A DNA stretch of 64,000 nucleotides from an uncultured Candidatus Saccharibacteria bacterium. Lineage in GTDB: Bacteria; Patescibacteriota; Dojkabacteria; SC72; WJKH01. The stretch is from assembly GCA_964602665.1 (NCBI GenBank), contig CAZRRH010000001.1, positions 8,414 through 72,413 of the forward strand. The letters run 5' to 3'. Below the pieces are notes generated by a model. It saw only the letters and a list, made by a program, of their open reading frames with translations, was not told the origin of the DNA and searched no databases. This document shows, one piece after another, positions 16,171 through 59,946 of the stretch (positions within the stretch are counted from its first letter, which is position 1; every line of letters starts with the position of its first letter). The translations under genes were made by a program, and so were the position numbers.

Positions 16171-16334
16171 ATTTTATACACCATTTCTCTTACTTTTGAG
16201 AAATATCGCACCTGAAATGGCAAAAATATTAATATCAGGGCTCCTGTGATGTAATAGATTGTTTTATTAGAAGTATTTTCCTCTGCCTCTGCTTGTTTAA
16301 AAAGTCTTACAAAAGCTTATATCTGTTGTCAAAT

Positions 16335-16360
16335 AAAAAAACGGCTCTTTATAGAGCCGT
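16335..16360 (-). terminator. intrinsic terminator downstream of rpsG
   Basis: Stem ACGGCTCT/AGAGCCGT (8 bp, 4-nt loop) followed on the minus strand by seven U. Confidence 0.5.
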
Positions 16361-16383
16361 TATCAAAATTCAAAATATAATTT

Positions 16384-16851
16384 TTACCATTTAAAATGAG
16401 CAAATGCCTTATTGGCTTCTGCCATCTTCTCCATATTAGCCTTCTTATTGAAAGCCTCGCCCTGCTCATTGTATGCATCCATAAGCTCTTTTTTAAGAAG
16501 AACATCAAAATTCGCACCACTCTTAGCCCTTGCGCTATCAACTATCCATCTAATAGCAAGTGTTTCCTGTCTTACAGGAGTCACTGGCATAGGGATAGAA
16601 TAATTAGCACCACCGATTCTTCTTGGTCTAACTTCTAGTGATGGTCTAACTTTATCAACAACAACATTTACAAAATCAACAGGCTCCAATTTTAGCTCTT
16701 TTGAGGCGGATTCAACTGCGCTATAAACTAATCTCTCCGCAACAGTTTTCCTTCCTCCTTGCATGACTTTGTTTATAAGCCTAGCAATAAGCTTATTGTT
16801 ATACTTAACATCTAGTGATACTTCTCTCTTTTTAGCTTGTTTACCTCGCAT
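16384..16851 (-). CDS. rpsG: ribosomal protein S7
   Basis: Strong S7 conservation throughout (VMQGGRKTVAERLVY..., GGANYSIPMPV). Confidence 0.9.
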   Translation of the reverse strand: MRGKQAKKREVSLDVKYNNKLIARLINKVMQGGRKTVAERLVYSAVESASKELKLEPVDFVNVVVDKVRPSLEVRPRRIGGANYSIPMPVTPVRQETLAIRWIVDSARAKSGANFDVLLKKELMDAYNEQGEAFNKKANMEKMAEANKAFAHFKW

Positions 16852-31929: not shown

Positions 31930-32350
31930 GGGGACGCAAGGCTTTCGACAGGGATTGTCTTCTTTATATTACAAGCAGGGTTTGACTCACCTTTATAATA
32001 GAGTCGGCAAAATAACTGCCAAAACAAATATTGCAACTTGGATAAGCGAGAAAGCACAGAATTTGTTTGCCTCACTAAGGCCAGCATTTCAGTACCAACT
32101 CCTTGCCTAGTTTATCTCTAAGGAGATACGCTTTTAATCACTCCTCCCAAATCGAGGGGTTATAGGCGGCTAAGAGGTTTGGGTGTAGCAAGATGGCTTC
32201 TCTTGGCCAAGCTATCTTGTCAAATTTATGTGCCAGGCGTGTTATCTTTTTTGCTCACTTAAGATGATAGCATGTATAACAAGTGAGATAAGCTTGTATA
32301 ATAGTATGAGGAAGGATTTCTGGATATGGGTTCAATTCCCGTCGTCTCCA
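31930..32350 (+). ncRNA. ssrA: transfer-messenger RNA (tmRNA)
   Basis: 5' end GGGGACGCAAGGCTTTCGACAGGG (the tmRNA acceptor and D-analogue signature). The 3' end GGGTTCAATTCCCGTCGTCTCCA has a T-arm and an acceptor strand complementary to the 5' GGGGACG. CCA is not encoded. A candidate tag frame ends ...ASLRPAFQYQLLA before a TAG at 32108-32110. Confidence 0.8.
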
Positions 32351-33138
32351 ATTGGGAATATTTGAGTTAGACCAGCACAGGTTTCAATTATTCTATAAAA
32401 ATCTCCTAGACTAATACCTATTGTTCTATTATATGTATCCCATCTTTTTGGTATAGCCATTGTGAATCCACGATCATCTAGCATCAATCCTAAATCGTCA
32501 TATCCATAAGTTGTTCTTTTTCTATGAAAAGGCCCGTCTTTTTTTCTTTCATATTCCCCTCTTATCAACATCATTAGTGCGGGAGTTCTTATCATATAAG
32601 CATCAGGAGAAAATAAATGCTGTTGAACAGAGAGAGATCTCACATATGGAGTATGTCCGTTATTTTTGTTTCTTCCAAGTTTTAGTACGGCAAGCGAAAT
32701 AGTAGGAATCCATCTGTTATCAATTCTTATTCTAGGCAATAAGAAAGCACATGCATTACTATAAGGATCAATAAACCCATGAAATCTTGGATTAATTTCA
32801 TTTAATCAAGTATCTGCAAGGATCCCAAGCATTGAATCTTGATTAGCTGGTACCATTTCAACAGGATTTGTTGTGTTTTCATCTATGCAGACAGAGATAC
32901 TTCTAACCGGAGAATGCCAATTTAGCACCTTTCCGGACCAAGCTTCAGTGGCTTCTTGGCAACCATCCGCAAATGTCATTCCTAAAAATCCCCACCTTTC
33001 TGGTAGAACTGTCTTTTGAAGCAATGGATGAACAACCTCTTTGCTTACACTTGCACCTTCTCTAGCAAACCCGGGCGTTTGCCCGTTTTCATCACCAAAC
33101 ATCATATTTGCAAGTGTTAAATTGCCGTTATTTTCCAT
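32332..33138 (-). pseudogene. hypothetical protein gene interrupted by an in-frame TGA (two same-frame ORFs); about 45% GC island abutting the tmRNA 3' end
   Basis: The ORFs at 32806..33138 and 32332..32739 are in the same frame. Translating across 32740-32805 gives ...GILADT-TGA-LNEINPRFHGFIDPYSNACAFLL-PRIRIDNRW... with no other stop. The TGA is at 32806-32808. Local GC is about 45% against about 30% genome-wide. The 3' end overlaps the tmRNA 3' end by 19 nt. I could not assign a family. Confidence 0.35.
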
Positions 33139-38023: not shown

Positions 38024-39793
38024 TTAGTCACTTACCACTGTACCACCCCACTCAAACATAAAGAAGCCTTCTCTATTAACCTTCTCTATCTTAGGACTAT
38101 CAATTTGTATCGGATTATCAACGCCCTTAAACAACATTAAGTATCTTTTGTAGGAGTCAACCTTAGGTTCTATACTTATAGGAGCAAGATAATCAAGGAA
38201 TTTCTCATCCCTATAAGAAATCAAAACATAAGGAGAATCCATTTCCGCGACTTTAGCAACCCAGTACTCCTTAAATTGACCGCTTTCTTTTTGATTAAAG
38301 CCCATACCTGGCAATGTTCTTGATAAGAACTCCTCTATTTCACCCTTTTTTATACACCAACCTGTTGAAAAATCCTCAACATTAATCTCGCTCATCCCAT
38401 CCCAAAAAAGATAATCATATTTATTTCCATCATTATCAGTAAGTATGGAACCTGAAGAAGCTTTAACTTCCCATCTTCCATTATATTTTGGAATAGTTCT
38501 TCTTAACTCTCCTTTAAAATCAATCCTCACAACAACATCGGTTGCTTTTGGAGGATAGAGATAAATCACTGGCTTTGCAATTCCGCCTTCATATACAAAA
38601 TCTTGGTTTGTCATTCTAACCCATCTTCCCATAAAATCTTTCCAGTAAGCAACTGGAGCATATTTATAGCTTTGTTCATAAGTAAATGGTGTAACATCAT
38701 CTTCTGTCATCAAGTTGTATTTATAATGTGCAAAATTGTTGTTAAGATAATCTTCTGTATAAATCTTTTTGGCATACTCATCTTTATTCATATCTTTATA
38801 TCGATATAATTTCTCACCACTTGTATGTACAGCAAATAATTCAAGATCACTTTCGTTTAACTCGACAACATCAATCGAATTAAGGATGTATTGCCCCTTA
38901 ATATCCATACTAAACCAAGGTTGATATGAGTCCAAAGAGCTGTCAACCCAAACAAGCTTCTCTTTACCGTCAGAGCCGTGATTTATTGGATTAACAAGAT
39001 AATTTTGCGAATAAAAATCATCAAAAATGTTAATGTACAAAATCCTGTTATCAGAATCCTCTTCGTCTGAATATATTGCATATTTTGTGCCTTCAAATTC
39101 GTACTCTTTTTTTAATTCAACAGAATTTTCATCTAATAAGACAATAGATTCAAAGAATATCTTTTCATTATATGTAGAGTCTATTGGTATATTTGCAAGG
39201 CTTTTTGATAAATTAAGCTCTGAATCTATAACCACATTACTATTTGGTACAAAAAAACTAGAGCCTTCCCCCTCATCAACATTATAAAATCTTTTTCCTC
39301 CAAGAGTATATTTACCATCTTTTTCTAAAATCTCAATTTCAACAGGGGTCCTACTGTCATAAGAAGTTAGAAATATCCCGTAAAAATAATTTTGATATTC
39401 TTCAAGATCATTAGTCAAAACCCCAAGAATAATTCTACTGCCAGAGAAATCACCGTCTGTAATCTCTCCTACTTCATAATATTGATAATATTTATCAGGA
39501 TCAAGCCCTGCATAATTTGTCGTAAAAAGATTAATATCAGAAACGGTTTTTTTGCTCTGATTTATTGCAAGTTCTGATTTCGGTGCGCTATCAAGATATC
39601 CTCCTTTAAAAACAGCGGGTGTTGTTGGATTATCATCTATATCAACTGGATCTTCTATATTTGGCCGTGGATCAACATCCACTATTGTTGATCGCTTAAC
39701 TAAAACAGCTATCAAAACAGCTGTTACGACAGATCCTATAACACATAAGCTCAGCAAGCCAACAATCAAAATTGTAATATGTTTTTTTTCCAT
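38024..39793 (-). CDS. hypothetical secreted or membrane-anchored protein (589 aa)
   Basis: N-terminal TM anchor ITILIVGLLSLCVIGSVVTAVLIAVLV. No recognisable family. Translationally coupled context (5-nt and 17-nt gaps). Confidence 0.4.
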   Translation of the reverse strand: MEKKHITILIVGLLSLCVIGSVVTAVLIAVLVKRSTIVDVDPRPNIEDPVDIDDNPTTPAVFKGGYLDSAPKSELAINQSKKTVSDINLFTTNYAGLDPDKYYQYYEVGEITDGDFSGSRIILGVLTNDLEEYQNYFYGIFLTSYDSRTPVEIEILEKDGKYTLGGKRFYNVDEGEGSSFFVPNSNVVIDSELNLSKSLANIPIDSTYNEKIFFESIVLLDENSVELKKEYEFEGTKYAIYSDEEDSDNRILYINIFDDFYSQNYLVNPINHGSDGKEKLVWVDSSLDSYQPWFSMDIKGQYILNSIDVVELNESDLELFAVHTSGEKLYRYKDMNKDEYAKKIYTEDYLNNNFAHYKYNLMTEDDVTPFTYEQSYKYAPVAYWKDFMGRWVRMTNQDFVYEGGIAKPVIYLYPPKATDVVVRIDFKGELRRTIPKYNGRWEVKASSGSILTDNDGNKYDYLFWDGMSEINVEDFSTGWCIKKGEIEEFLSRTLPGMGFNQKESGQFKEYWVAKVAEMDSPYVLISYRDEKFLDYLAPISIEPKVDSYKRYLMLFKGVDNPIQIDSPKIEKVNREGFFMFEWGGTVVSD

Positions 39794-51285: not shown

Positions 51286-51325
51286 AAATCTACTCTTATA
51301 TTAACTTATAAGGGACTGTTTGTCA

Positions 51326-51358
51326 ATAAAAAAAGTGGCCGTCTTAACTGGCGGCCAC
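51326..51358 (-). terminator. intrinsic terminator downstream of dnaK
   Basis: Stem AGTGGCCG/CGGCCACT (8 bp, 10-nt loop), followed on the minus strand by seven U. Lies 30 nt past the dnaK stop. Confidence 0.55.
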
Positions 51359-51387
51359 TAATAAAGCATAATTCGTTTATCAAAGAT

Positions 51388-53304
51388 TTACTTTACAACC
51401 TCTCCCTCTTGAGCATTATCTTCTTTATCATCTTTTTTCTGCTCAGATGAATCTGGTTTTTTATCTTCTGACTGAGTTTTCTGTGCTTGAGAAGCGGCTT
51501 CTTCATACATTTTCTTGCTTATTTCTTGAACTATTTTCTCAAGTTCTTCCTGCTTTGTCTTAACTTCATCAGCTTTAAAATCCTCCTTAGCTATAAGATC
51601 TTTAAGCTCTTTGGTTAATTCTTCTGCTTTTTTCTTTTTATCTTCGTCTATTTTATCGCCCGATTCTTTTATTAACTTCTCTGTATTAAAGACTAATGAG
51701 TCGGCATTATTTCTTACTTCAGCTTTTTCTTTTTTCTCCTTATCTTCTTTGGCGTGCAACGCAGCTTCCTGCACCATTTTTTCGACCTCTTCATCGGCAA
51801 GATCTGTCGAAGCAGTAATTGTTATCGCTTGCTCTTTGCCTGTAGCCTTATCTTGAGCTTTTACATTGAGTATACCGTTGGCATCTATCGCAAACGAGAC
51901 TTCAATTTGAGGAACACCTCTTGGTGCTGGAGGAATTCCCGATAACTGAAATCTACCAAGTGTTTTATTGTCACTTGCCATTTCTCGCTCCCCCTGCAAT
52001 ATATGTATATCAACTGCGGGTTGATTATCCGCTGCTGTAGAGAATATTTGTTTTTTCTCTGTCGGAATTGTCGTATTTCTCTCAATTATTTTTGTCATTA
52101 TTCCTCCCATAGTTTCAACCCCAAGTGAAAGAGGTGTTACGTCAAGTAAGGTTATGTCGTTTACATCTCCGCCTAAGACTCCTGCTTCAATAGCCGCTCC
52201 AAGTCCAACTGCTTCATCAGGATTTACTGACTTATTAGGCTCCTTACCAAATATATCTTTAACTTTCTTTATAACTGCAGGCATTCTGGTCATACCTCCT
52301 ACGAGTATAACTTCATCAATATCTTTGACATCCATCTTTGCATCTTTTATTGCCTTAACAGTTGGCTCCTCGCATTTATTTATTAAATCAGCTGTCCATT
52401 TTTCTATTTCTGATCTTGTGATTTCCCTCTTAAAGTGTTTAGGACCTTTTGCATCAGCGGTTATGTAAGGAAGGTTTATTTCTGTTGTTTCCTTTGATGA
52501 AAGCTCTATTTTGGCTTTCTCTGCGGCTTCTCTAAGTCTTTGAAGTGCAGTTCTATCGTCATTTAGATCGATTCCTTGCTCCTTTTTAAATTCGTCTATT
52601 AGCTCTTGCATTATTACTCTATCCCAGTCATCACCACCTAAGTGAGTATCACCATTGGTTGATAAGACCTCATAAACCCCGTCTCCAATATCAAGAATCG
52701 ATATATCAAATGTGCCTCCTCCAAGGTCAAATACTGCGACTGTTTGCTCTTTCTCTTTATCGAGACCATAAGCTAAAGCCGCTGCGGTTGGCTCGTTTAG
52801 AACTCTTTTGACGTCAAACCCAGCTATTTTACCCGCATCTTTTGTAGCTTTTCTCTGTGAGTCATCAAAATATGCAGGGACAGTAATAACAGCTTCTTTT
52901 ACTTCTTCACCCAAAAATCTCTCTGCGTCAGCTTTAATTTTTGCAAGAATTTTTGCAGAGACTTCCTGTGGTGTATACCATTTGTCTCCCATTTTGACTT
53001 CAATTCCACCTGAAGATGATTTCTGCATTTTAAAAGGTAAATTCTTTTTGTCTTGCTCTATTGCAGGATCATCCCAAGTTCGACCAATCAGCCTCTTTAC
53101 CGAATAAATTGTGTTCTCAGGATTTACTACAGCCTGATTTCTTGCTTGTCTTCCGACAATTAGCTGTTTTTTATCATCAACAGCAACAACAGAAGGCAGG
53201 AGATTTTCACCTTCAGCTGTTGGTATCACAGTTGATTTACCAGCCGCCATATATGCGATAACTGAATTTGTTGTTCCCAAATCAATTCCTATTATTTTTG
53301 CCAT
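51388..53304 (-). CDS. dnaK: molecular chaperone DnaK (Hsp70)
   Basis: [18 protein letters not shown], full-length Hsp70 conservation. 638 aa. Confidence 0.95.
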
Positions 53305-58316: not shown

Positions 58317-58575
58317 CTTTTTTGTTTGTATTAATTTAATTAAACGCCCCCGCCATTAGGAATTTTGCTTTGTAACAGACATAACTACATCTGTCCTCAA
58401 TACCAAAATTCCTAATGGCGGGGGCGTATCTATTTCTTACGCGGTACCACCCTACCTTTGATCTCTTTTCTAGTATTTATACGGTTTTATTCCGTCGGAT
58501 TCTACTCTCCTGTCTATACACAACAAAATTTCTTTCCGCCCCATCCTCAGATGAACAATTCTGAGTCTATCGGGT
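58317..58575 (-). promoter_or_regulatory. T-box riboswitch leader (antiterminator/terminator) upstream of pheS
   Basis: The minus strand contains AAAGGUAGGGUGGUACCGCG (the T-box consensus AGGGUGGNACCGCG) at 58453..58440. A perfect 24-bp terminator stem lies at 58427..58404 and 58367..58344 (GCCCCCGCCAUUAGGAAUUUUG ... CAAAAUUCCUAAUGGCGGGGGCG), followed by a U/A-rich tract. GGGUGG can pair with CCGCCC of the terminator 5' arm to form the antiterminator. A small upstream hairpin at 58565..58546 displays UUC. Confidence 0.75.
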
Positions 58576-58917
58576 TTATTTAGCCTGATTTACTATTTTT
58601 GAAAATAATTCAGGACTGTCTTGCAAAATCTCTGATAATACTTTTCTGTTTAACTGAATCTTTGCTTTTTTTAAACCGAAGATTAGCTCTTTATATTTGA
58701 GCCCGTTTTGCAATGCGCCTGCATTTAATCTTGTTATCCAAACCCTGCGCATTTGACTTGCTCTCCTGCGTCTGTGGATATAAGAATATTGTCCTGCATG
58801 TAAATATGCCTCGTGAGCAACTTTGTACAGCTTACTTTTTGTCATTCTATAACCTTTATTTGCATTAAGGACTTTTTTATGTCTTCTTCTTGTTACAACA
58901 CCACCTTTTACTCTCAT
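58576..58917 (-). CDS. rplT: ribosomal protein L20
   Basis: VTRRRHKKVLN...YIHRRRRASQMRRVWITRLNAGAL, strong L20 identity. Confidence 0.9.
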   Translation of the reverse strand: MRVKGGVVTRRRHKKVLNANKGYRMTKSKLYKVAHEAYLHAGQYSYIHRRRRASQMRRVWITRLNAGALQNGLKYKELIFGLKKAKIQLNRKVLSEILQDSPELFSKIVNQAK

Positions 58918-59132
58918 TTCTTTATGTTGGTTATTTTATTTCTTATTTTTGCAACAGCAACTTCTGTATGTGTTTTACTTGGTAATTTCCTTCTTTTGCT
59001 TCTTGCTGATCTCTTGGTCTGAAGATGATGTTTACGAGTTGGATTGTAAAGCCCTTTTATTTTGGATTTATCTTTAGGGTTTGTGAATTTCACTCGTTTT
59101 TTTGCTGTTTTATTTGTCTTTATTTTAGGCAT
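58914..59132 (-). CDS. rpmI: ribosomal protein L35
   Basis: MPKIKTNKTAKKRVKFT... matches L35. Start taken at the internal ATG; the listed ORF begins 12 codons upstream at a TTG. Confidence 0.75.
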   Translation of the reverse strand: MPKIKTNKTAKKRVKFTNPKDKSKIKGLYNPTRKHHLQTKRSARSKRRKLPSKTHTEVAVAKIRNKITNIKK

Positions 59133-59169
59133 GTCTTTTATTATACCATGTTGGTCGTCATTTGTCAAT

Positions 59170-59772
59170 CTAGGGAGAAACTGTTATCCTCAGCACTGGC
59201 CCCATTGCAACAGAATCTTTATCTCCTGAAACTTTTAAATTTATGCTTGTCATCTCATGCTCTTCACCATCTAGAGGACAAAAACGGGCAACAACAGAAC
59301 CTTCGGCTCTGTTTTCTTTAAGCACTCCTTCTGGTGCTCTCTCAAGGATCATTGCGCTACGATATGATCCTTCTTGATTATCGGTGGCTCTTGCATCGAT
59401 AACAGCATCTTCAAAACAAGCTTGATTTGTATTCCCAAAAGCAATTCCATAAGGAGAAGGGCTCACACCTGCATTCATGCGGTATTCAAGCTCAACTGGA
59501 TCAAAAATCATTGGTACAACCATAGTTGGGGACCCGGCAACTACGGACCTGGGTTGCCAAAAAGATGTCCTTAAAGATCTCATTGCATCAAGAATTTTTT
59601 CACCGTTATTAACAAGATGTTGAAAATGCTTCAACCTTGCAGAAAATCTTGGAGCAACAACTTCCATCCCTTTGAAAACTCGCTCGTGCGATCTTCGCCA
59701 AACAATGGTTTCCTCTTCATTAGGTATTTGCGTAACAGTTCTTTCAGATGTGGGTCTGTTATAAAATGTCAT
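59170..59772 (-). CDS. hypothetical protein (200 aa), a compositionally atypical gene (about 45% GC) between infC and rpmI
   Basis: The ORF has no recognisable motifs and breaks up the otherwise conserved infC-rpmI-rplT arrangement. Hand-counted GC of 60-nt samples is about 45% against about 30% in flanking genes. Confidence 0.35.
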   Translation of the reverse strand: MTFYNRPTSERTVTQIPNEEETIVWRRSHERVFKGMEVVAPRFSARLKHFQHLVNNGEKILDAMRSLRTSFWQPRSVVAGSPTMVVPMIFDPVELEYRMNAGVSPSPYGIAFGNTNQACFEDAVIDARATDNQEGSYRSAMILERAPEGVLKENRAEGSVVARFCPLDGEEHEMTSINLKVSGDKDSVAMGPVLRITVSP

Positions 59773-59946
59773 GTGTGTTTTTTTACAATTTAAATATTTT
59801 TTACAATCTCTTCAATCTTTATAAAAAGAGATTCTGCATAATCCTCTGTCATCTCTCCACTCTCTATCATCTTTAACACTTTATCCGTGATAGATAATAT
59901 CAGCCTTTTTAGTTTCTCTTCTTTTAAGCTTTTCTCCATATCAAAA

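Follow-up and report, generated by a model that had tools for sequence, protein, structure and literature searches.

A T-box-derived leader with a proposed ultrashort Stem I between rplT and a fused alaX-pheS gene in a Patescibacteria-like genome

We have analysed a stretch of DNA of 64,000 nucleotides (nt), referred to here as the window, from contig CAZRRH010000001.1 (assembly GCA_964602665.1, positions 8,414 to 72,413 of the forward strand) of an uncultured Candidatus Saccharibacteria bacterium, placed by GTDB in the Dojkabacteria of the Patescibacteriota. On the minus strand of the window, the gene for ribosomal protein L20 (rplT) is separated from the phenylalanyl-tRNA synthetase genes by a leader of 259 nt. 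An initial annotation, made from the letters alone, took this gap for a T-box riboswitch leader, and we find that it is almost certainly a T-box-derived element. The features of the gap and its bordering genes are listed below in 5' to 3' order; all coordinates refer to the window.

58576-58917, minus strand: rplT (ribosomal protein L20, 113 amino acids, aa), stop codon 58578-58576
58575-58317, minus strand: intergenic leader region, 259 nt, exactly the gap from rplT to the next open reading frame (ORF)
58540-58574, minus strand: ultrashort Stem I, 35 nt, proposed from the sequence, the minimum free energy fold and the layout of the Nocardia farcinica ileS leader
58555-53, minus strand: proposed specifier UUC (Phe) and, after it, the purine A58552, closing the apical loop on its 3' side
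58496-58538, minus strand: putative Stem II, lower helix 58538-35/58499-96, upper helix 58528-22/58514-08, loop 58521-15
58477-58495, minus strand: putative Stem IIA hairpin (58495-92/58484-81, loop AAUAAAA) with the F-box-like sequence CCGUAUA
58467-63, minus strand: purine string AAGAG (RRRxG), then AUC 58462-60 and AAA 58459-57
58453-58440, minus strand: T-box sequence AGGGUGGUACCGCG, 14 of 14 positions matching the consensus AGGGUGGNACCGCG
58421-58452, minus strand: antiterminator in the canonical register, -6.2 kcal/mol
58344-58427, minus strand: putative terminator hairpin, 24-bp perfect stem and inner hairpin, -57 kcal/mol
58317-58343, minus strand: U/A-rich tail UUAAUUAAAUUAAU and short 5' untranslated region
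58316-56616, minus strand: first putatively regulated gene, a 566-aa AlaX-like-PheS fusion ORF
56595-53989, minus strand: second putatively regulated gene, pheT, 868 aa

The 14-nt T-box consensus upstream of pheS, already reported by the initial annotation, contains no mismatch and is the single exact copy in the window. By our own arithmetic, about 5e-4 exact copies of the 14-mer would be expected by chance in 128 kb, that is, on both strands. A scan of the window allowing up to three mismatches gave one extra match, with 0.52 expected by chance; this three-mismatch site (38036-38049) lies within coding sequence and was dismissed. The antiterminator consists of a 3-bp helix A1 (GGG 58452-50/CCC 58423-21) and a 5-bp helix A2 (GCGUA 58442-38/UACGC 58428-24, loop 58437-29), which are separated by a 7-nt bulge, UGGUACC (58449-43), matching UGGNACC. 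The 3' strand of the antiterminator, 58427-58421, is at the same time the first 7 nt of the terminator 5' arm, and the two helices are mutually exclusive. The competition between antiterminator and terminator proposed by the initial annotation is therefore retained, but its pairing of GGGUGG with CCGCCC gives way to the canonical register of GGG/CCC plus GCGUA/UACGC. Upstream of the T-box sequence, AAGAG and AAA match the flanks of the discriminator consensus given in reviews (5'-RRRxG-Stem III-AA-3'), and AUC alone occupies the place of Stem III. The entire leader folds at -101.5 kcal/mol (z = -8.5 against shuffled sequences).

The perfect 24-bp terminator hairpin is likewise as first described: strands 58427-58404 and 58367-58344 pair with no mismatch, and the hairpin ends 27 nt ahead of the ATG. 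The base of the stem is GC-rich and is followed by UUAAUUAAAUU, with a weak U-tract; the stem is much longer than is common. No Shine-Dalgarno-like sequence was found in 58317-58343, nor at a usable distance in the 3' arm of the hairpin. Across strains the terminator occurs in two forms, one of 85 nt (in the window and in contigs L174 and L179) and one of 152 nt; the long forms are located as follows.

L163:113-264; L170-L173:1322-1473; L177:97-221: long forms of the terminator, window counterpart 58428-58344

In the 152-nt form each arm holds a unit of 13-14 nt in about 4.5 copies, the tandem units GCCATTAGGATCCT and CCTATTAGCAGGA being repeated on both arms in matched numbers, and its stability is -92 to -103 kcal/mol. 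In L177 the hairpin is 125 nt long, and one repeat unit is gone from both arms together. Among the long-form haplotypes, 7 of 7 differences keep or gain pairing, including one compensatory change from C-G to U-A. These stabilities are extreme relative to the T-box database TBDB, in which terminators average -19.5 +/- 7.9 kcal/mol. Many assemblies break at the repeat hairpin.

The remaining 5' part of the leader can be read as a decoding module of 98 nt (58574-58477). Since it starts two bases past the rplT stop codon, no coding sequence is needed to form it. Thermodynamic folding yields its three hairpins (-27.3 kcal/mol, z = -3.4). The small hairpin with UUC in its loop noticed by the initial annotation (58565-58546) is the upper part of the first of them, so that a stem I with a candidate specifier can indeed be folded upstream of the T-box sequence, as a kink-turn (K-turn) hairpin at 58574-58540. 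The canonical stem (C-stem) pairs CCCG 58574-71 with UGGG 58543-40 and is followed by a 3-nt bulge, AUA 58570-68; the tandem G58567.A58544 and A58566.G58545 agree with the K-turn consensus at the sequence level; and the non-canonical stem (CUCAGA 58565-60/UCUGAG 58551-46) closes the apical loop AUUGUUCA (58559-52). According to reviews, a short Stem I mounts the specifier in the apical loop with a conserved purine after it, and by this analogy the apical UUC is most likely the true specifier. In the proposed Stem II, GAA 58532-30 lies opposite AGUA 58506-03, followed by G58502 and A58501 (AGUAGA 58506-01), in keeping with the GAA/AGUA S-turn and 5-purine string that reviews assign to this stem. 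The Stem IIA region is aligned by Rfam with high posterior to CGg...cCGUUA.

The closest counterpart of this module is found in the class II leaders of actinobacterial ileS genes, which we compared through the published N. farcinica sequence and review descriptions (PDB 6UFM and 6UFG as cited). In the parses below, paired strands, bulge and loops follow one another from 5' to 3'.

Leader, first half: [CCCG]-[AUA]-GA-[CUCAGA]-(AUUG UUC A)-[UCUGAG]-GA-[UGGG]-G
N. farcinica ileS Stem I, nt 1-29: [GGC]-[GAC]-GA-[UCCGG]-(CC AUC A)-[CCGGG]-GA-[GCC]
Leader, second half: CGGA-AA-GAA ... AGUA-GAA-UCCG-A-CGG...CCGUAUA
N. farcinica ileS after Stem I: CGG-AA-GAA ... AGUA-GAA-CCG-AA-CGGG...CCCGUCA

All elements occur in equal order and spacing, over 99 nt in N. 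farcinica and 98 nt in the leader, and the leader has the Stem II strings CGGAA(A)GAA and AGUAGAA(U)CCGA(A)CGG in common with the ileS leaders of N. farcinica and Mycobacterium tuberculosis. Like these leaders, the proposed one has a K-turn hairpin with an apical specifier and purine, a GAA/AGUAGA S-turn in Stem II, a Stem IIA with an F-box or F-box-like sequence and a purine string before the discriminator, and it has no tRNA-elbow platform. The actinobacterial leaders, which possess Stem III and a IIA/B pseudoknot, are specific for Ile and control translation through sequestration of the Shine-Dalgarno sequence. The leader of the window belongs to a Patescibacteria-like genome, has a Phe codon and ends in a hairpin that resembles a terminator and is followed by a U/A tail; Stem III and pseudoknot are both missing from it. 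With the class I pheS T-boxes of Firmicutes (Rfam family RF00230) it shares the target gene, the 14-mer with UGGU, a UUC specifier, the competition of antiterminator and terminator, the S-turn in Stem II as well as CGG...CCGU(U)A. Those T-boxes differ in that their Stem I is long, with an internal-loop specifier and the AGAGA/UGxRA platform, and in having Stem III, and they score 105-120 bits with the RF00230 model against 30 bits for the leader.

In Escherichia coli, the pheM attenuator holds the matching position between rplT and pheST in the conserved thrS-infC-rpmI-rplT-pheS-pheT cluster. As in the switch proposed here, charging of tRNA-Phe controls read-through into pheST, but it does so by ribosome stalling on the Phe codons of a leader peptide and not by direct tRNA binding. 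The T-box of the Bacillus subtilis gltX-cysE-cysS operon is also intercistronic, and upstream transcription must pass through it; it is an ordinary class I leader that does not abut the upstream stop codon.

The cluster to which the leader belongs further includes the following features, all upstream of rplT except dnaK.

62290-60509, minus strand: thrS
60492-59947, minus strand: infC
59772-59170, minus strand: ORF of 200 aa with no Pfam match, between infC and rpmI
59140-59168, minus strand: promoter-like site of sigma-70 type, TTGACA-17-TATAAT (12 of 12 positions), with TG upstream
ATG at 59132, minus strand: rpmI, between the promoter and rplT
further along the gene order after pheT, minus strand: dnaK

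The promoter-like site at 59140-59168 is the sole good promoter upstream of the leader. The ATG of rpmI lies about 7 nt past its -10 hexamer, and the rpmI-rplT transcript would accordingly be leaderless or nearly so. Inside rplT and after the hairpin, the best promoter candidate matches 8 of 12 positions, and none is comparable. Since there is no promoter between the hairpin and the ATG, expression of the essential synthetase genes seems to require that transcripts started at the rpmI-rplT promoter read through, which argues for a working antitermination device and not for a relic. The initial annotation had counted AlaX and pheS as two genes; they form one fused ORF. At its N-terminus lies an AlaX-like editing domain, about 230 aa long, in which the two zinc motifs are intact (HxxxH as HSAGH 111-115, CxxxH as CGGTH 189-193), and Pfam recognises the C-terminal part of tRNA-synt_2c together with tRNA_SAD. 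The nearest named relatives of the PheS part are from Candidatus Dojkabacteria/WS6 and other Patescibacteria, and on this ground the organism probably belongs to the candidate phyla radiation. The database contains at least 13 homologous AlaX-PheS fused proteins, of which one carries the label Candidatus Dojkabacteria, and a literature search for the fusion found no description. The GC content of the window is 33-36%.

Some observations concern other parts of the window. The infC-rpmI spacer (59170-59929, minus strand) is a hypervariable spot between strains: elsewhere (L170-L173, L185-L194) it holds ORFs of 53+173 aa or 49+200 aa or, in L173 and L186, is almost empty, and none of its ORFs across strains has a Pfam match. 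A tmRNA gene (RF00023, 121.8 bits) is located at 31930-32353 on the plus strand; the tag predicted for it, AKTNIATWISEKAQNLFASLRPAFQYQLLA, is unusually long. The L20 leader family RF00558 gave two weak matches, at 16327-16434 and 51321-51512 on the minus strand (about 26 bits, E 0.6-0.75); both are away from infC-rpmI-rplT and are probably due to chance.

The identical 566-aa protein and an identical L20 were found on more than 20 metagenome contigs of one and the same species, which allowed the conservation of the motifs and of the mutually exclusive helices to be observed in the population. The pheS part hardly varies between strains, at 0-4 differences over 1701 nt; in pheT, 8-25 differences fall within the first 1.5 kb, and the leader upstream of the T-box diverges by 3-6%. 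Between the window and L163, the one comparison checked in this respect, 21 of 25 pheT differences fall at third codon positions. The Stem I hairpin is invariant in 13 contigs. In 12 leaders, the segment from RRRxG-AUC-AAA through the terminator base is invariant save for one base of the A2 loop. Under the proposed register, 100% of the Stem II cells are paired in four haplotypes; a purely thermodynamic register would lose three of these paired cells. Three of the seven pairs of the upper helix vary, on one side only and always remaining paired, and the other changes lie in the 7-nt loop. The support that strain variation gives to Stem II is real but thin, since there are four haplotypes and no double compensatory change.

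A second kind of leader, termed B-type here, occurs in the same population.

L174:1194-1500 (= L180); ends of L181-L184: B-type leader

The MEGAHIT contig L174 carries an identical pheS (0 differences in 1701 nt). Its leader departs from that of the window at 13 of 224 positions, with 94% identity over the part from Stem II to the terminator. Upstream of the position of G58540 it is unrelated, with a 217-aa ORF, an extended -10 promoter TGATATAAT and another first hairpin, UCUC-AGU-UA-A-GCCAA-(CUAGUCA)-UUGGU-AA-GAGG, whose layout is similar to that of Stem I. Its F-box-like sequence is CCGUAGA. The 217-aa ORF adjoins a gene of the beta-lactamase fold and RNase J, and four independent contigs run from this ORF into the B-type leader, each breaking inside it. 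On one of two readings, the B-type leader comes from a strain whose specifier hairpin gave way to another one, and the functional model would be weakened. On the other, it is a sister T-box (perhaps of Val type) joined to pheS by recombination or in assembly, which would strengthen the model. In other contigs, the surroundings of rplT and those of the 217-aa ORF are compatible with allele and paralogue alike, and none of the rplT contigs leads elsewhere.

We then surveyed pheS loci for comparable leaders. Nineteen Patescibacteria loci were covered (L001-L003, L013, L014, L016, L028, L051, L056, L074, L076, L081, L082 and L164-L169), eight of which carry the closest PheS, fused or unfused (61-38% identity), and eleven from other Patescibacteria; the rplT-pheS gaps of the relatives hold plain hairpins. 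A contig scan with the alignment as query gave mostly Clostridia and a metagenome scan gave distant PheS, neither with a close relative of the leader. By blastn against all fetched loci, only a core of 14-20 nt is common, and no donor of a horizontal transfer was identified. Among the pheS-linked T-box leaders fetched (72 motif matches), 51 show GAA-N-UU[C/U], nearly all with UUC, and none has a K-turn hairpin with apical UUC. A literature search found no paper linking T-boxes with the candidate phyla radiation.

Judged by its core and most of its modules the leader is a T-box, and it departs from the family in Stem III and in the Rfam threshold. It is predicted to join a decoding module of class II type to an output of class I type, and probably works as a tRNA-Phe-sensing conditional terminator between rplT and alaX-pheS-pheT. 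Transcription would start at 59168-59140, cross rpmI and rplT, and enter the leader two bases past the rplT stop codon. The K-turn hairpin would then present UUC-A to the GAA anticodon of tRNA-Phe, and the S-turn of Stem II would buttress the codon-anticodon helix. If the tRNA is uncharged, its free ACCA end would pair with UGGU (58449-46) in the bulge and stabilise the antiterminator, and RNA polymerase would read into the synthetase genes; if it is charged, the much more stable hairpin 58427-58344 would form, with a stop in the U/A-rich tail. From the sequence we infer tRNA binding, Phe specificity and termination. The long hairpin may delay the decision point, which would compensate for slow tRNA capture by a Stem I without an elbow platform. 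The central claim of the initial annotation, a T-box leader before phenylalanyl-tRNA synthetase genes, is thus supported by the core, the antiterminator, the exclusive terminator and UUC, and control of these genes by the leader would follow from that arrangement.

Several observations weigh against such a switch. No Stem III helix could be drawn by hand between the RRRxG and AA flanks, and a hand search found no complementary partner downstream for the loop AAUAAAA with which a IIA/B pseudoknot could form. The significant RF00230 match to which the initial annotation looked was obtained by E-value (5.7e-5 in 501 nt, 0.0073 in the whole window), being the top family match over the full model length, but its 30.2 bits are far under the curated gathering score of 93, and at the gathering threshold no T-box is called in the whole window. 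The U-tract (UUAAUU) is weak, the surroundings show no enrichment of classical terminators, and the terminator exceeds the mean stability in TBDB by more than 4 standard deviations. According to reviews, a long Stem I with a tRNA-elbow platform is generally needed in transcriptional T-boxes, the reason given being slow tRNA capture in its absence. The K-turn-hairpin pattern occurs at 3 sites in the window versus 2.2 in shuffles and is not significant alone. The four distinct haplotypes of the decoding module include no double compensatory change, and that all four differences between the window and L163 spare structure is not significant (P = 0.13). No T-box was found in the 19 Patescibacteria loci by motif, by gathering score or at E <= 1, and no tRNA-Phe gene came up when the window and 20 loci were scanned for tRNAs. 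The B-type hairpin loop, which ends in GUC-A, contains no Phe codon and the hairpin no G.A pairs, and in one contig this leader precedes an identical pheS. The lack of Stem III and of a IIB pseudoknot, the sub-threshold score, the absence from related loci and the B-type junction, together with a 3.5% divergence of the leader upstream of the T-box that is about the rate of pheT third positions, would fit a degenerate or relic T-box, a leaky terminator or attenuator that ends the rpmI-rplT unit and leaves pheST to basal read-through. We consider this unlikely, although it is the most serious of the competing explanations. In a genome of 35% GC decay would be expected, whereas the 14-mer, the antiterminator helices, RRRxG, the G.A pairs of the K-turn and UUC-A are intact and invariant while the neighbouring loops and linkers vary. 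Moreover, a hairpin of -57 to -103 kcal/mol in front of essential genes with no downstream promoter calls for an antitermination device.

The covariance model itself points to a different register. Its alignment places the 5' half of a long Stem I in the last rplT codons and the UUC hairpin as distal loop, compresses the 19 columns of Stem III to 3 nt, and marks nearly all of Stem II as unpaired. The leader would then be of class I, with a long Stem I at 58615-58515 (its 5' half in the last 13 rplT codons), the specifier UUU 58528-26 in GAA-A-UUU-U, and the UUC hairpin as distal tRNA-elbow platform. The specifier columns, calibrated on true clostridial pheS T-boxes (120 and 105 bits), land on this UUU, which was first adopted and then dropped on the N. 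farcinica comparison and the strain variation. The Infernal alignment does cover the full model, bona fide pheS T-boxes place GAA-N-UUC-N in the matching columns, and AGUA 58594-91 and AUAGA resemble the specifier-loop and AG-bulge motifs; the supposed AG bulge is better explained as a K-turn, since GA is also present on the opposite strand. In the class I register, however, the K-turn is absent, 3 of 6 mid-helix pairs and most of Stem II are mismatched, and Stem II is left without a 5' strand, since its GAA is already taken, a GAA that in our parse belongs to the predicted Stem II S-turn. The class I apex T-loops AGAGA and UGxRA are replaced by AUAGA and, in the distal loop, UGUUC. AGUA sits in the conserved KIV codons of L20, the rplT coding sequence would be required, the UUUU run forms part of a helix in which strain variants preserve the pairing, and the B-type leader has no rplT upstream at all. 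A class I register is therefore improbable. Slightly less credible still is a translational T-box as in Actinobacteria, in which the big hairpin would sequester the ribosome-binding site. An ultrashort Stem I is otherwise known from translational T-boxes, but here 27 nt lie between the end of the hairpin and the start codon, whose place is fixed by N-terminus conservation in homologues, its 3' arm offers no Shine-Dalgarno-like sequence at a usable distance, and a U/A-rich tail directly follows the stem. Finally, an ordinary operon terminator might lie by chance beside a T-box-like 14-mer, given the low Rfam score and a K-turn-hairpin pattern that is not rare alone. Against this stand the rarity of the exact 14-mer, its correct strand, place and register with antiterminator and terminator, and the Stem II, Stem IIA and RRRxG motifs in order together with a Phe codon before pheS. 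Taken together, they effectively refute chance resemblance.

It is conceivable, and we put it forward tentatively as somewhat doubtful, that the leader represents an unrecognised T-box subclass of Patescibacteria with an ultrashort K-turn Stem I, no Stem III and a very long, expandable terminator, of which the B-type leader is a sister T-box of other specificity. If so, the B-type sister implies a recent duplication and re-targeting of the switch. More broadly, if the proposed Phe-sensing switch is real, tRNA-sensing riboswitches extend to the candidate phyla radiation, and an ultrashort Stem I module tied by reviews to actinobacterial translational control drives transcription termination. 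The leader would be the first T-box without Stem III and a test case for what the discriminator needs. Since such elements escape RF00230 at the curated threshold, they are likely undercounted when riboswitches are surveyed in uncultured lineages. The population data amount to a natural experiment, in which the terminator grows by matched units on both arms while the sensor stays fixed.

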